Assembly (NCBI GenBank): GCA_965223545.1
Contig: OZ245006.1
Span: forward strand, 1,760,001-1,824,000
DNA from: Planctomycetota bacterium
Lineage (GTDB): Bacteria; Planctomycetota; UBA1135; UBA2386
DNA: 64,000 nt
Direction: 5' to 3'
Numbering within the stretch: the stretch's first letter is position 1; every line of letters begins with the position of its first letter. Below are positions 903-5,313 of the stretch, in pieces. A program made the translations under genes and the position numbers. The notes under the pieces were generated by a model. It was not told where the DNA came from. It did not search any database and saw nothing but the letters and a program-made list of their open reading frames with translations.

Positions 903-1622
903 GTGGCCGAGAGGAACCGGCAGGCTCTGGCAGAGCGCGTCGCACGCGCGGCAACGACCGCCCTCGAATCACAGGGCTCCGTCACCGCGATCGACGTGAT
1001 GCTCGGTCTTCGGTGGCTCAGCCCGAGCTGTCTCGTCGAATGGCGCACACGGCGACTGCCAGCCCTGCAGCACGCCATCCAGACCGACCCGAAACGGGTG
1101 CGCTTGGCGCTGCGGTTGTTTCGGGAATGGGCCCAACAAGCCGAGCTCGAGCCCGCGGAGGCCGACTACGTCGCCCGCACGCCAAACCGCGAGCGCTTGC
1201 AGTTCTCGCTGTCGGGCGCCGCCGCGCTGGAGGCTGCATGGCGGACCCAGTGGATTTCGCCCAGGCTCTCGACAGCCCAGCGCGGGCGGGTGCGAGCGAA
1301 TGCACAGAAGCCGCCGGAGTTGGTGGTCGTCATGGCGCTGCACCCCGACTGGGAATGCCATCACTGCGGTGGCAGCGGCGCGCTCCTGGTCATGGAGCCG
1401 CCCGGCCCAGCCTGCCTTCCCTGCGTCGGTCTCGATCACCTCGAGCTGCTGCCAGCTGGCGACGCGCTACTGACGCGCCGCGCCCGTGCCGCTAGCAAAC
1501 AGACCGCCGTCGTGGTGCGCTGGAGCAAGGCGCGCAAGCGCAACGAACGTGTCGGTTGCTTGGTCGAGCACGAGGCCCTCGCATCGGCGCGCGCGCGCAT
1601 CGAGCGCGAGTCGGCCCAGTGA
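903..1622 (+). CDS. Conserved hypothetical protein with CxxC...CxxC motif (resembles N-terminal part of DUF2293 proteins)
   Basis: GTG after GGAG; CHHCGG...CLPC followed by LPAGDALLTRRA...VVRWSKARKRNERVGCLVE. Confidence 0.7.
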   Translation: MAERNRQALAERVARAATTALESQGSVTAIDVMLGLRWLSPSCLVEWRTRRLPALQHAIQTDPKRVRLALRLFREWAQQAELEPAEADYVARTPNRERLQFSLSGAAALEAAWRTQWISPRLSTAQRGRVRANAQKPPELVVVMALHPDWECHHCGGSGALLVMEPPGPACLPCVGLDHLELLPAGDALLTRRARAASKQTAVVVRWSKARKRNERVGCLVEHEALASARARIERESAQ

Positions 1623-1653
1623 CGCGTCGTGATTCGCGGAGGGCCGGCGCCGT

Positions 1654-2226
1654 CTAGAAGACCAGCGAGTCGTCGCGCCGGACTCCATCACACGCGATCT
1701 CGAGAACCGCGAGCGCCTCGGCGATCTCTGCCGGCTCGGGCACCGCGCTTCCGCGCTTGATGTGCACGATGGTCTCCGCTCCGAAGAAGACATCCTGAAC
1801 ACTGGCGAAGCTCTTCATGAAAGCCGCACGGGCCTTCTTGGCGCTGGCCGCTCAAAGGGGCTTCGGCGTGCCGGCGACGAACGCCGCCAAAGGCCGCACG
1901 ATCTCGCGCCGTTCGAAGTGCCCGAACTTCAAGCCCTGCTCCTCCAGCGCGCTCCTCGCATCGTCTTCGGAGAGCGTCGCGCCCTCGTCGAGCACGAGGG
2001 TCGCGCGCACCCCACTCATCATCAACCGGTCGACTCCATCGAGACTTTCCATGGCCGCACGGGCCTTGGCGGTGGCGCCTCAACCGCCGCCGTCCGCCTC
2101 CACGATGTGCACGACGAGCTTTGGTCCGGGGGCCGAACCCTCGCGCACCGACGTCAGGATGGAAGTGTCACCGCACGCCGCGACGCCCAGAGCGGTGGCG
2201 AGCAGGATGGAGCTGTGAGTCTGCAT
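1654..2226 (-). CDS. Putative double-selenocysteine lipoprotein with two HMA-like repeats (190 aa; UGA at codons 49 and 125)
   Basis: ORFs 2080-2322 and 1852-2052 plus the downstream frame to TAG at 1654 are one frame broken only by TGA at 2080-2082 and 1852-1854; lipobox VAAC; both TGAs followed by AAGGCCCGTGCGGC hairpin. Confidence 0.78.
1819..1837 (-). promoter_or_regulatory. SECIS-like hairpin after second UGA
   Basis: mRNA GAAGGCC-CGUGC-GGCUUUC, 7-bp stem with one G-U pair; loop begins after a 21-nt spacer from UGA; G at loop position 2. Confidence 0.7.
2049..2069 (-). promoter_or_regulatory. SECIS-like hairpin after first UGA
   Basis: mRNA CCAAGGCC-CGUGC-GGCCAUGG with one A.A mismatch; same loop; 18-nt spacer from UGA. 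Confidence 0.7.
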
Positions 2227-2234
2227 GTCTCGCC

Positions 2235-2265
2235 AGATGTCGGCGAGCGGGCGGGCGATTGCAGA
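2235..2265 (-). promoter_or_regulatory. Putative ECF promoter for the selenoprotein gene (TCTGCAAT-N16-GACATCT)
   Basis: Minus strand TCTGCAAT cgcccgcccgctcgcc GACATCT, ending 8 nt before the ATG at 2226. Confidence 0.7.
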
Positions 2266-2293
2266 TCTCGAGAAATCCGAGGATCTCCCGGTT

Positions 2294-2324
2294 TCTGCAA
2301 TGTGGGAGCGCGGCCCTGACATCT
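2294..2324 (+). promoter_or_regulatory. Putative autoregulatory ECF promoter (TCTGCAAT-N16-GACATCT)
   Basis: TCTGCAAT gtgggagcgcggccct GACATCT, ending 16 nt before the sigma ATG; boxes and spacer length identical to the divergent copy. Confidence 0.7.
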
Positions 2325-2340
2325 ACGTCTGGCATCGCGG

Positions 2341-2917
2341 ATGTCCGACCACCCCGCGCAGACCCTGGACCTGGACGAGTTTGCCGCACGCTTCCAGCGC
2401 GCGGCACCGGCGCTGTGGTGCGTCGCGGCAGGGGTCCTCGGTTCGCCCGATGCCGCCGAGGACGTCGTGCAGGAAGCGGCGCTGCACGCGATGGCCAAGT
2501 TGCCGACATTCCGCGCGGACAGCGATTTCACCGCTTGGATGGCGCAGTTCGTCCGCTTCACGGCCCTCAACCAAGTGCGTCGCGTGGACCGCGAACCCAA
2601 ATCCCTCGGATCCAACCTGCCGGAGCCGGTCGCACCCAGAGCAACGTCCCCCCTCGTGTCGGAGGTCGGGGACATCCTGCCGGAGCAGACGGACCTCGAC
2701 GATCACGTGCTGCACGGGCTCAACGCCTTGCACGAGACACAACGCACGTGCCTTCTGTTGCGCACCCGTGCTCGATCTCCCCTACCGCGAGATCGGCGAG
2801 ATGCTCGACATGCCCGAAGGCACGGCGATGAGTCACGTGCACCGCGCGCGGCAGCAGCTCGTCGATCAGCTGAGGGGTGCAGCCGCGACGACCACCGAGG
2901 CGAGGAAGGCCCAATGA
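2341..2917 (+). pseudogene. ECF sigma-70 factor with a 1-nt insertion frameshift at 2765-2767 (real lesion or sequencing error)
   Basis: Region 2 (AAEDVVQEA...FTAWM) is in the frame of 2341; region 4 (VLDLPYREIGEMLDMPEGTAMSHVHRAR) is in another frame; removing one C from ACCCGTG restores RTVLDLPY. Confidence 0.88.
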
Positions 2918-3609
2918 ACCAAAGGGATCGGCACGACCTCCAACGCTGGCTCGACGGCACTTTCGAGGCCGAAGAACGCGCCGCCTTCGAGCGACGCATC
3001 GACGAGGACCCCGAACTTCGAGCCGAGCTGCAGGTGCACGAGCAGGTTGGCGAGTCGATCCGGCGCAGCCATTCGGTACCGGAGATCAACGCCCCAGCGC
3101 CGGCAGCGCCGGCAGCGCCACCGCGATGGCCGTTCTTCGTGGCGGGCGCGGCCAGTGCCGCCGCAGTCCTGCTCGTCTGGCTGCAGCCGTGGGCCAACCG
3201 CACCGAGCTGATGCGCATGGCGGTGGGTCGCAGTTGGCTCGCGGTCTGCGAACAACCCGACCCTCGCCCCGCCGAGCCCGCCTGCGCGTCCCCAGGCCAG
3301 GTCCCACAGTACGTCCAACCGCTCGCCCCCGAGCTCCCGTCCCCGCTGGTGTGGCGCGACGCCGAGGGCGTGCGCTTCGAGCGGGGCCTCGAGCCGCGCC
3401 CGCCGAACGGCCTGCGGGTACTCGCGCTTTCGGTGCTTCCGCAGACCGACGTGTTCTTGTTCGTCGTGCCCGCGGCCACCGACCCACGACCGGCGCTTCC
3501 GCCGGACACCGACTGGAACCTGTTCCGCAAGACCTGTGGCGCACTGGTGGTCTACGAGCTCACACCGCTCGAGAAGCCGCACGGCTTGCAGTGTTTGGCC
3601 GCGGGATGA
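2914..3609 (+). CDS. Transmembrane anti-sigma factor
   Basis: ATGA overlap with the sigma stop; LQRWLDGTFEAEERAAFERRIDEDPELRAEL anti-sigma-like N-terminus; one TM helix; extracytoplasmic domain with 4 Cys. Confidence 0.85.
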   Translation: MNQRDRHDLQRWLDGTFEAEERAAFERRIDEDPELRAELQVHEQVGESIRRSHSVPEINAPAPAAPAAPPRWPFFVAGAASAAAVLLVWLQPWANRTELMRMAVGRSWLAVCEQPDPRPAEPACASPGQVPQYVQPLAPELPSPLVWRDAEGVRFERGLEPRPPNGLRVLALSVLPQTDVFLFVVPAATDPRPALPPDTDWNLFRKTCGALVVYELTPLEKPHGLQCLAAG

Positions 3610-3667
3610 CCGCAGTCTCTGCCGACGCGCTACCGCCACTGCGGGCCGCCGATGTTACGCTTTCGTC

Positions 3668-4045
3668 ATGGCAGCGAAGAAGCGCGCGGCAAAGAAGACG
3701 CCGGCCAAGAAGGCCGCGAAGACCAGGACTCCCGACCGCATGACCACGGCCGAGCGCTTCGTCACCGGGCAGCACACGAAAGAGGATCTCGAGCCCGTTG
3801 CCGTGAAGTGCCCCGAGTGCGGACACAGGGGATTTCAGGCTGCCAAGGGTCGATTCGGGCCGGTCTGGCGCTGCCTGAACCGGCCGGCCTGCAAGCACTT
3901 CTTCGACGCGCGCCCGACCGGCAAGAAGTGCGGTTATGTGGTCAGGGGAAAGAAGTGTGGCGCCTTGATGGTCGAGGGAACGAAGACGATTCCCGACCGT
4001 TGCTCGCTGCGGTCGTGCCCCAATCGCAATCCACACCGGCTGTAG
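3668..4045 (+). CDS. Stand-alone topoisomerase-type C4 zinc-ribbon protein with Lys/Ala-rich N-terminus
   Basis: AAKKRAAKKTPAKKAAK; CPECG...GRFGPVWRCLNRPACKH; second KCG...CGALM...CSLRSC. Confidence 0.75.
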   Translation: MAAKKRAAKKTPAKKAAKTRTPDRMTTAERFVTGQHTKEDLEPVAVKCPECGHRGFQAAKGRFGPVWRCLNRPACKHFFDARPTGKKCGYVVRGKKCGALMVEGTKTIPDRCSLRSCPNRNPHRL

Positions 4046-4055
4046 TGGGTCCTCC

Positions 4056-5313
4056 GGCAACAAACTGCAGCCCTTCCGTGGGCCTGGCTAGCTGAGAGAC
4101 GCTGACCGAGACGTAACCGGAGCCCTCTTCCGAGTCACTGGAAGTGACGCAGGGCCAACTGCGCAAACGGTGCCCTTTTGGTCCCCCCCCGCGTTGTGTC
4201 CCGGAGGTCGCCGATGTTCGTTCCCCCGCGTTGCCCCAACTCAGCTTGCCCACACAACCGCAGCCCGCGGCCCGGCTTCTTCGTACGCCGTGGCTACTAC
4301 TACCCCAAGTGCCGCGCCCAAGGCGTGCCGCGCTTCCGCTGCCGCCATTGCCGGCAGGGCTTCTCGCGGCAGACGTTCCGCATGGATTACCGCGACCACA
4401 AGCCCGACCGCAACGCCTGGATCGTCATGTTGCTCTGCTCTGGCCTGGGCCTGCGACAGACCGCACGCCTGGCCGGGCTCACGGCGCGCAACACCGAGAT
4501 GAAGTTCCGCAAGATCGGTCGTCACGTCCGCCGCCTGAACAACAACTTACGGGGCGACCTCCCGGTCGGCTCGAGCTTGCAGTTCGACGAACTCGAGAGC
4601 TACGAGGGCCGCCGCAACACGCGGCCCCTGACGCTGCCTGTCCTGATCGAGCGCGGGAGCCGCTTCATCCTCGCAGCGCGGTCGGCCCCGATCCGCCCCG
4701 GTGGCCCCAAACCGGCTGCGCGCCGGCGAGCTATAGAGGCCGACGCGCGGCGGTTTGGCCGGCGGCCGTCGCGGTCGCGCGCGGCAACGCGCAATGCGCT
4801 GTGCCGGGGCGCGCGCGCTTGCACTCGGTTGACCACCGTGTTGCTCGAAACGGACGAGAAAACGACCTACTCAGGACTCGCGAGGGGCATTTTCGGCGCG
4901 CGGCTCGAGCACCAGCGAACACCAAGCACGCTGCCGCGCGAGACCTGGAATCCGCTGTTCGCGATCAACCATACCGAGGCAATGGCGCGCGACCTCAACG
5001 GTCGTCTGCGGCGCGAGTCCTGGCTGGTCAGCAAGAAGCGCTGTTTCCTCAACCTGCAGCTGCACATCTACACCGCGTACCGCAACTTCACGCGACCGCG
5101 CTTCAACTTCGACCGAGACACGCCGGCGATGCTGGTTGGCTGGCTGCCCCAGAAGTTGCGGCTGAACCAGGTGCTATCCTGGCGCCAGGACTGGGGCACG
5201 CGCAGCGGCCATCCGCTGGATCGAAACGCAAAACCGATCGAGAACTTCCTGAAGAGCTCTGCCTGACTTTCTTGCGGCCGTGCCGGACCACGGAAGGGCT
5301 GCAGTTCACAACC
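4056..5313 (+). mobile_element. IS1/IS1595-like insertion sequence, about 1.26 kb
   Basis: Terminal inverted repeats GG-N5-AACTGCAGCCCTTCCGTGG (19-bp perfect core at 4063-4081 and 5288-5306) enclosing one transposase-like ORF; no target duplication seen. Confidence 0.75.
4214..5266 (+). CDS. IS1-family-like transposase (Zn finger, HTH, catalytic domain)
   Basis: GGAGG RBS; CPNSAC...RFRCRHC; GLGLRQTARLAG HTH; QFDELE, ETDEK, INHTEAMARD...RLRR; TPAMLVG. Confidence 0.8.
   Translation: MFVPPRCPNSACPHNRSPRPGFFVRRGYYYPKCRAQGVPRFRCRHCRQGFSRQTFRMDYRDHKPDRNAWIVMLLCSGLGLRQTARLAGLTARNTEMKFRKIGRHVRRLNNNLRGDLPVGSSLQFDELESYEGRRNTRPLTLPVLIERGSRFILAARSAPIRPGGPKPAARRRAIEADARRFGRRPSRSRAATRNALCRGARACTRLTTVLLETDEKTTYSGLARGIFGARLEHQRTPSTLPRETWNPLFAINHTEAMARDLNGRLRRESWLVSKKRCFLNLQLHIYTAYRNFTRPRFNFDRDTPAMLVGWLPQKLRLNQVLSWRQDWGTRSGHPLDRNAKPIENFLKSSA

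Follow-up and report, generated by a model that had tools for sequence, protein, structure and literature searches.

A probable, uncatalogued double-selenocysteine protein of the HMA kind in Planctomycetota, with a predicted ECF promoter link

Introduction

A reading frame on the minus strand of the 64,000-nucleotide stretch of planctomycete DNA analysed here (the window) contains two in-frame TGA codons, which raises the question of whether these are stops that break up a gene or selenocysteine (Sec) codons within a single gene, and what the product of such a gene would do. An initial annotation of this DNA had proposed a selenoprotein made as an exported lipoprotein with two HMA-like repeats, which would bind metal or act in redox chemistry. 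Read-through of UGA by SelB at a SECIS element is an established route in bacteria according to the portion of PMC13188914 used here, and Haft and Gwadz, in the part of their work relied on, link CC and CU motifs to heavy-metal contact.

Results

A single reading frame with two TGA codons

The gene lies at 1654–2226 (minus strand) and, judged by its frame, homologues and coding score, is predicted to encode a tandem-HMA exported protein of 190 residues with two Sec codons. As initially annotated, a single frame, here of 190 codons, runs from ATG at 2226 to TAG at 1654, with TGA at codons 49 and 125 as its sole interruptions, a reading confirmed by the sequence and by coding score. The hexamer log-odds of the three segments separated by the TGA codons, from a model trained on the genome, are 0.31, 0.37 and 0.33 in this frame, the only one that appears coding in all three segments; the other five frames score negative. 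GC3 of the segments is 0.82–0.85.

Positions 1400–3700 of the window are identical, with no letter or gap difference, in four public assemblies; these come from one study (two samples) and may themselves be the source of the DNA, so they exclude a one-off assembly error and nothing beyond. The gene has no paralogue in the host genome, and no sigma-70 promoter or terminator consensus was found at positions 1500–2500. Within its clade the window copy is the most divergent of 15 members, with 14 of 77 conserved columns broken, and for this reason it may be under relaxed selection. Two other open reading frames on the plus strand were noted: a convergent 272-codon gene (804–1622) that contains CxxC motifs and matches nothing in Pfam or NCBIfam, and a 362-codon frame (4178–5266) with paired Cys motifs that looks like an IS transposase by eye.

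Distribution of the family and conservation of the UGA columns

With the window protein as query, matches were obtained in 6 of 91 genomes of its taxonomic family, five of them with two TGA codons. A five-row profile matched 128 of the 339 genomes of the class, which places the gene far beyond chance. Among the matches at E≤1e-20 (n=109, counted by hand), 106 contain exactly two TGA codons, one contains one, one contains three, and one contains two TGA codons plus a TAG. A 55-row profile matched 46 of 401 genomes of the phylum, with ordinary HMA proteins among the weakest matches. A single-protein search of GTDB contigs gave no match. A pattern built on DNA only (UGA plus hairpin) retrieved 53 GTDB loci, 50 of which belong to this tandem-HMA family. 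Most of the 50 are from Planctomycetota, among them Engelhardtia mirabilis Pla133 (L134), and L100 comes from an Akkermansiaceae genome; the remaining three of the 53 (L103, L120, L128) were rejected as chance matches. No member of the family was found in 300 other genomes searched in the phylum of the Akkermansiaceae genome. A further candidate without stops, L013 (E 0.006), was judged unrelated and set aside.

We compared 74 distinct full-length homologous genes (loci L008–L134 and L169, most of the profile covered, E≤1e-18), a set from which incomplete copies, copies with frameshifts and a relative with three domains and one Sec were excluded. UGA stands at both sites in 73 of them, and one (L036) has TGA followed by TGC. 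The initial annotation had named aligned TGA/TGY columns in homologues as a check: in the alignment of 55 members, both columns hold TGA or Cys in every row, and conservation spans both TGA codons. The natural Cys forms are L036 and P0008, the latter with Cys at both sites. In a midpoint-rooted tree, single-ligand forms are separated by a 100/99 branch from five rows that keep CxxC, and the rows of L036 and P0008 group together as sisters inside the Sec forms, which suggests a reversion from Sec to Cys.

Some relatives show other arrangements. L066–L072 and L079 have three domains, of which the first contains the only Sec, and share a conserved D-C-K motif and an E-P-C motif at the C-terminus; one of these relatives, L068/L141, has the ECF promoter motif. 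L062–L065 are tandem HMA selenoproteins in which the second Cys is kept. L014, L077 and L078 have an extra Sec-free HMA-like domain at the N-terminus, and L077 is present as two tandem copies.

The suggestion that gene callers fragment the gene was borne out in the protein library, where 93 of 145 profile matches are no longer than 90 aa and 90 of these 93 are bounded by the UGA columns: 71 span the stretch from one stop to the other, 16 follow the second stop and 3 precede the first. The remaining 3 of the 93 are of other kinds. In 14 database proteins, Trp stands at both UGA columns. One 90% cluster contains a 183-aa Trp form, on contigs of about 0.7–1.3 kb, beside 38-aa and 66-aa pieces that end exactly before the Trp positions; for this reason, the simplest account of Trp in these forms is that gene callers translated TGA. 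Gene callers switch genetic code on short contigs.

Predicted SECIS hairpins and selenium machinery

Each UGA is followed by a predicted SECIS hairpin on the minus strand, recognised by a stem rule and by covariation. Hairpin 1 (2049–2069, −10.9 kcal/mol) places a 5-nt loop 18 nt past UGA 1, and hairpin 2 (1816–1840, −10.5 kcal/mol) a 5-nt loop 21 nt past UGA 2. Both satisfy every criterion of the bSECISearch consensus as summarised in the consulted part of PMC13188914 (loop of 3–9 nt with G then G/U first, spacing of 16–37 nt, energy below −7.5 kcal/mol). Nothing essential differs from this consensus; the lineage prefers a 5-nt loop, which is also found behind other candidate Sec codons of the host.

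A hairpin whose stem has 4 bp or more and whose pentaloop reads N-G-U lies behind 109 of 110 sites compared with 1.8% of all genomic TGAs, and when G-G loops are also allowed, behind 147 of 147 sites compared with 4.2%, under a rule formulated after inspection of the sequences and among members that are related to each other. Stem covariation was assessed on a set of 80 distinct hairpin sequences from which one was omitted, so that 79 were used, a mis-anchored row among them: 91.6% of cells are paired, none of 500 shuffles reaches the score, slid controls give 29–51%, and two-sided changes occur in six of seven stem pairs. The Arg codon of the loop is CGT in 104 of 104 cases versus 28 of 354 Arg codons elsewhere; this near-invariant Arg is probably imposed by the RNA, as His takes its place at site 2 of the Cys/Cys homologue P0008. 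Folding energies of 53-nt windows were no better than those of shuffles (z −0.17 and −0.50). The altered loop at the Cys site of L036 was considered as a control for SECIS decay and dropped as weak, because TGA site L018 shows the same loop change and the published consensus permits it.

All four sel genes that the initial annotation named as a check are present in the host genome above curated cut-offs, namely selA, selB, selD and a tRNA-Sec with a UCA anticodon (selC), which is the sole tRNA with this anticodon there; the host SelD gene itself has an in-frame TGA. selA occurs in 316 of the 339 class genomes, so its co-occurrence with the family is consistent but not discriminating within the class. 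It also occurs in all four named-record genomes, including L134 and L100.

A scan of the host genome for TGA plus hairpin in coding context returned 26 candidates, most of which resemble known selenoproteins by eye. It found site 2 of the gene and missed site 1, whose unbroken stem has only 4 bp. About 18 of the 26 appear plausible by eye (G000:C1), with FdhA-, MsrA-, AhpD-, Prx-, Trx- and DUF3179-like proteins among them. Candidates without assignment, also counted among these, lie at G000:C1 492917, 2993927, 6151628, 3622532 and 3116011, and a second, single-domain HMA-like lipoprotein with U-G-G-C lies at 6727831 (+).

Two predicted HMA domains with probable single selenocysteines

The predicted structure, with U modelled as C, has a pLDDT of 95 and a pTM of 0.88 and comprises two beta-alpha-beta-beta-alpha-beta units. 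HMA domain 1 covers about residues 36–110 (1897–2121, minus strand; model, fold search and half-to-half alignment) and HMA domain 2 about residues 112–186 (1669–1893, minus strand; model, profile and fold search). The two halves of the protein align with each other (probability 98). The closest folds are the metal domains of ATP7B, ZntA, CCS and Ccc2 (Z 8.6–9.1, rmsd 2.0–2.9, 68–71 residues), and the family profile, which contained three CxxC-keeping rows, matches CopA metal domains at E 2e-8. At E≤0.01, 16 of 55 members match PF00403 individually, 13 of them outside the three CxxC-keeping rows. The window protein itself has no match to PF00403 at the Pfam gathering score and no significant Pfam or NCBIfam match, and the ESM Atlas returned only leads below 0.9, in HMA clusters. 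The search for a solved structure that covers the two domains jointly gave no match (best TM 0.39; other matches cover one domain each), an absence that carries no weight. Model, fold search and CopA match together uphold the two repeats of the initial annotation, and we regard an HMA fold as practically certain.

In both units the ligand loop precedes helix 1. Sec49 (UGA 1, 2080–2082, minus strand) is placed in the metal loop of domain 1 by frame, alignment and model, and Sec125 (UGA 2, 1852–1854, minus strand) in that of domain 2 by frame, alignment and profile. The proposal that each UGA occupies the first-Cys place of CxxC is supported: the second U aligns to the first Cys of the CopA motif, and both lie in metal loops of the model. 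The accompanying proposal of Thr or Ser in place of the second Cys holds at site 2, a G-x-T-U-x-x-T loop (Thr in 45 and Ser in 3 of 55 members), but not at site 1, a glycine-rich loop without a second ligand where Ala, Ser or Gly is usual and the Thr at +3 of the window copy is unique among the 55. The two-ligand CxxC site is thus missing at both sites of the window protein, the second Cys being kept only in a separate outlying group, and 23 of 55 members have no other Cys at all.

A lipoprotein signal peptide with a lipobox ending at Cys18, as initially claimed, was identified by sequence and pattern test at 2173–2226 (minus strand), so the window protein is predicted to be exported and here lipid-anchored. 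By our own heuristics, a hydrophobic N-terminus occurs in 70 of the 74 homologues and a lipobox pattern in 33; export is therefore predicted to be general, but the lipid anchor is not.

A predicted ECF promoter and a divergent sigma/anti-sigma pair

A motif and matrix search predicts an ECF promoter, TGCAA[GT]-N16-GACAT, at 2237–2263 (minus strand). It ends 10 nt ahead of the ATG, and the mRNA is therefore predicted to be nearly leaderless. The same motif faces the opposite way at 2296–2322 (plus strand), 18 nt ahead of a divergent ECF sigma factor gene (2341–2917, plus strand), which points to autoregulation of the sigma factor. A putative membrane anti-sigma factor with a Cys-containing outer domain follows (2914–3609, plus strand); its orthologue L162 has a weak NCBIfam anti-sigma match, and the window copy has no Pfam match. 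The tandem-HMA gene is accordingly predicted to bear the self-promoter of this pair.

The sigma gene carries a +1 frameshift (one extra C near 2765–2767) that puts region 4 out of frame and is the same in the four assemblies of one study; the shifted frame continues into the anti-sigma gene as an apparent 422-codon ORF. The only other sigma copy in the host genome is a decayed remnant, a 5' end with an intact promoter motif at G000:C1:4627347–4627700 (+). Outer domains of the anti-sigma factors are rich in Cys, with CC pairs in six of seven printed, and the window copy has four single Cys.

The motif lies 8–10 nt ahead of the family gene start in five genomes of five genera and ahead of 16 of 20 orthologues of the window sigma gene. 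A matrix built from sigma-gene sites alone ranks the decayed sigma copy, the tandem-HMA gene and the sigma gene as the top three sites of the whole 8.1-Mb genome. The strict motif precedes just 5 of the 74 genes of the family, or 8 of 73 when the matrix is used, so ECF control is not general in the family. Across 25 genomes the motif occurs 104 times versus 28 for the reversed pattern; these genomes were chosen for having the sigma factor or the motif, and about one site in each is owed to that selection.

Of 104 sites inspected in the loci retrieved, 54 have a plausible gene start behind them: 17 sigma genes, 4 members of the tandem-HMA family, 4 YHS-like CU lipoproteins with a SECIS-like hairpin, one more CU protein, which accounts for two sites, and proteins with CGC motifs (5 MauE-like, 2 DUF1573). 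The rest are diverse, and some of them are surely chance. CC-type motifs, besides CU and CGC, also occur in products of genes behind the motif. The exported YHS-like lipoproteins (L230:1542–2210, L231:1537–2121, L238:1535–2128 and L256:912–1490) contain C-U-x-P-C with the hairpin 20 nt downstream, and the two that were scanned have no NCBIfam match. The further CU protein (L216:583–1491, minus strand) is an exported protein of 303 residues with a SECIS-like hairpin and no Pfam or NCBIfam match. No metalloregulator-like box common to the upstream regions was found, and the main text of the ECF classification paper, as far as it was available, does not give the letters of the promoter motif.

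Gene neighbourhoods

Genes flanking the family vary and, for the single-ligand members, are not metal-related (126 flanking ORFs at 66 loci). The only metal pointers among them are a YbjQ-type gene at L112 and the surroundings of L064, of the CxxC-type subfamily, which lies between an ArsR regulator and CusA/CzcA efflux genes; the copies of L064 and L065 both belong to that cluster. The family gene is a single copy, mobile between neighbourhoods and without an operon partner, and no conserved reductase partner was found near it.

Discussion

Our findings indicate that the gene very probably encodes a selenoprotein in which both UGA codons specify Sec. Each of the refuting conditions named in the initial annotation was checked, and none was found. 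The ribosome would read each UGA through SelB acting on the in-frame SECIS hairpin, and each Sec would occupy the first-Cys place of an HMA CxxC loop whose second Cys is gone, two steps that the sequence supports well. In the host and a few relatives, the gene would be transcribed from the promoter of the ECF pair. The product may then serve in the periplasm to trap or carry soft, thiophilic metal ions of the Cu(I)/Ag(I)/Hg(II) type, with the selenolate as a strong metal ligand. Each domain would be a half site, as it lacks the second Cys, and could be completed by the Sec of the other domain, by a second molecule or by a partner protein. Soft metals are bound more tightly by selenolate than by thiolate, a CxxC pair becomes oxidised in the periplasm, and a single metal ion can be bridged by an HMA dimer.

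Taken as a whole, a real, exported two-HMA selenoprotein that traps or carries soft metals and is here linked to an ECF pair is the best overall explanation and, in our judgement, moderately probable. For metal binding as the main role, taken separately, the balance tips only slightly in favour. We favour periplasmic soft-metal binding over redox catalysis on account of the metal-chaperone fold and ligand position, the CxxC sister copy in a CusA/CzcA cluster, and the CU and CGC motifs of genes linked to the promoter motif.

More tentatively, and on balance unlikely in its entirety, the two domains could face each other so that their lone Sec residues rebuild the CxxC pair in the form of a Se-metal-Se site or a diselenide. 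In that case Planctomycetota would have a selenium-based stress system for soft metals in the periplasm, with this protein at its core, switched on by the ECF factor, with a Cys-rich anti-sigma factor that senses metal and with co-regulated, uncatalogued exported selenoproteins such as the YHS-like CU lipoproteins.

The same selenoprotein could instead have a periplasmic redox role, an alternative that we consider unlikely but deserving of serious attention, in which a Sec at the helix N-terminus would act as a monothiol-type nucleophile or enter a diselenide cycle for peroxide reduction or disulfide exchange. The loss of the second metal-binding Cys, with Thr or Ser at +3 in 48 of 55 site-2 loops, agrees with such a role, as do the missing metal-gene context of the single-ligand family, the promoter motif shared with MauE-like CGC proteins, and the mostly Trx-, Prx-, AhpD- and MsrA-like appearance of the other host candidates. 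In PMC13188914, the entries considered in Table 1 also list U-x-x-T as typical of redox selenoproteins, and the part of the review used here regards most uncharacterised selenoproteins as probably redox proteins. Set against this are the fold and loop position, which are those of metal chaperones and not of thioredoxins, the 23 members without another Cys to resolve a selenenic intermediate, and the lack of a conserved reductase partner nearby.

Improbable, in our estimate, is a role as a periplasmic selenium carrier or store, or as a docking module whose Sec bonds partners reversibly. Such a role would suit a mobile single-copy gene without an operon partner and the rarity of Cys forms (one TGA/TGC gene among 74, and P0008), but two Sec per 18 kDa make a poor store, and the ability of Sec to revert to Cys in L036 and P0008 fits chalcogen chemistry better than selenium storage. 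That UGA is instead a true stop (in a pseudogene or between three small genes) or a Trp codon is very improbable: the 14 Trp-bearing database proteins, the divergence of the window copy and its broken sigma factor speak for it, but the shared cluster marks Trp as most simply a misread TGA, UGA serves as the terminal stop in many family members, the only UCA tRNA is tRNA-Sec, and the frame and both hairpins are maintained among members just 15–20% identical.

The family adds a large hidden group to the bacterial selenoproteome, with some 110 strong matches among the 339 genomes of a single class, and reaches other Planctomycetota families and at least one Akkermansiaceae genome; in public protein sets it is present as fragments or with misread Trp. 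A doubled exported HMA protein with a single Sec per domain and no partner Cys offers a natural case in which to ask what selenium gains over sulfur as a metal ligand where the surroundings are oxidising, and a cultured carrier, Engelhardtia mirabilis Pla133 (L134), makes such a test feasible. Through the shared ECF promoter, the signal that induces the gene becomes accessible to study, and more selenoproteins that lack annotation come into view.

We describe this protein as a variant of the HMA kind with two selenocysteines that the catalogue does not list, well supported as real, with a predicted function and with a link to an ECF promoter that is predicted here for the first time. None of the 119 prokaryotic selenoprotein families in the consulted content of the 2026 catalogue (PMC13188914 Table 1) has this design; an entry in BSepDB or RefSeq is possible. 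No description of the family was found in the literature, including the accessible parts of PMC13326102, PMC12013277, bioRxiv 2022.07.06.499078 and PMC7826278, and a search on Sec-substituted Atx1 sites found no paper. The nearest entries in the catalogue, within the same content, are NF041115, the UxxC P-type ATPase, a mercuric transport protein and MbdU.

MbdU (NF045648, CU x2) shares with the family two Sec and a proposed metal-binding role, according to the Table 1 entry used, but has CU motifs where the family has a lone U, and it is not among the 25 families listed as matches to the 55 members. NF041115 (UxxU_metal_bind) is likewise an HMA-type domain with Sec in the metal loop and two Sec per protein; however, both lie in one U-x-x-U loop of a 74-position model, whereas the family has a signal peptide and two domains that each contain a single Sec. 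Weak matches to NF041115 (E≤0.01) were obtained for 25 of 55 members, the best scoring 71.9 bits where the cut-off is 95; no match was obtained with the window protein, and neither a U-x-x-U loop nor a score of at least 95 bits was found. In the P-type ATPase selenoprotein (UxxC, TIGR01525) and the MerT/CopZ fusion (NF045683), Sec replaces Cys in a heavy-metal motif as in the family, but these are membrane transporters that keep the second Cys, whereas the family is soluble, exported and without it; NF045683 is matched only by three CxxC-retaining outliers, far below the cut-off.

The family differs from MerP, CopZ and CopA in having no CxxC pair, in using Sec for Cys and in lying outside mer/cop operons. 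It is not encoded with metal transport or regulator genes as the CopZ/MerP metallochaperones are, except for the CxxC-type copy L064, and its two-domain arrangement cannot be superimposed on the domain pairs of CopA or ATP7B (rmsd 12–17 Å, TM≤0.35). With MerP, CopZ/Atx1 and the tandem domains of CopA/ATP7B (PF00403), it shares the fold, the loop position and the G-x-T-C pattern at site 2, and MerP is periplasmic, as is predicted for the family protein.
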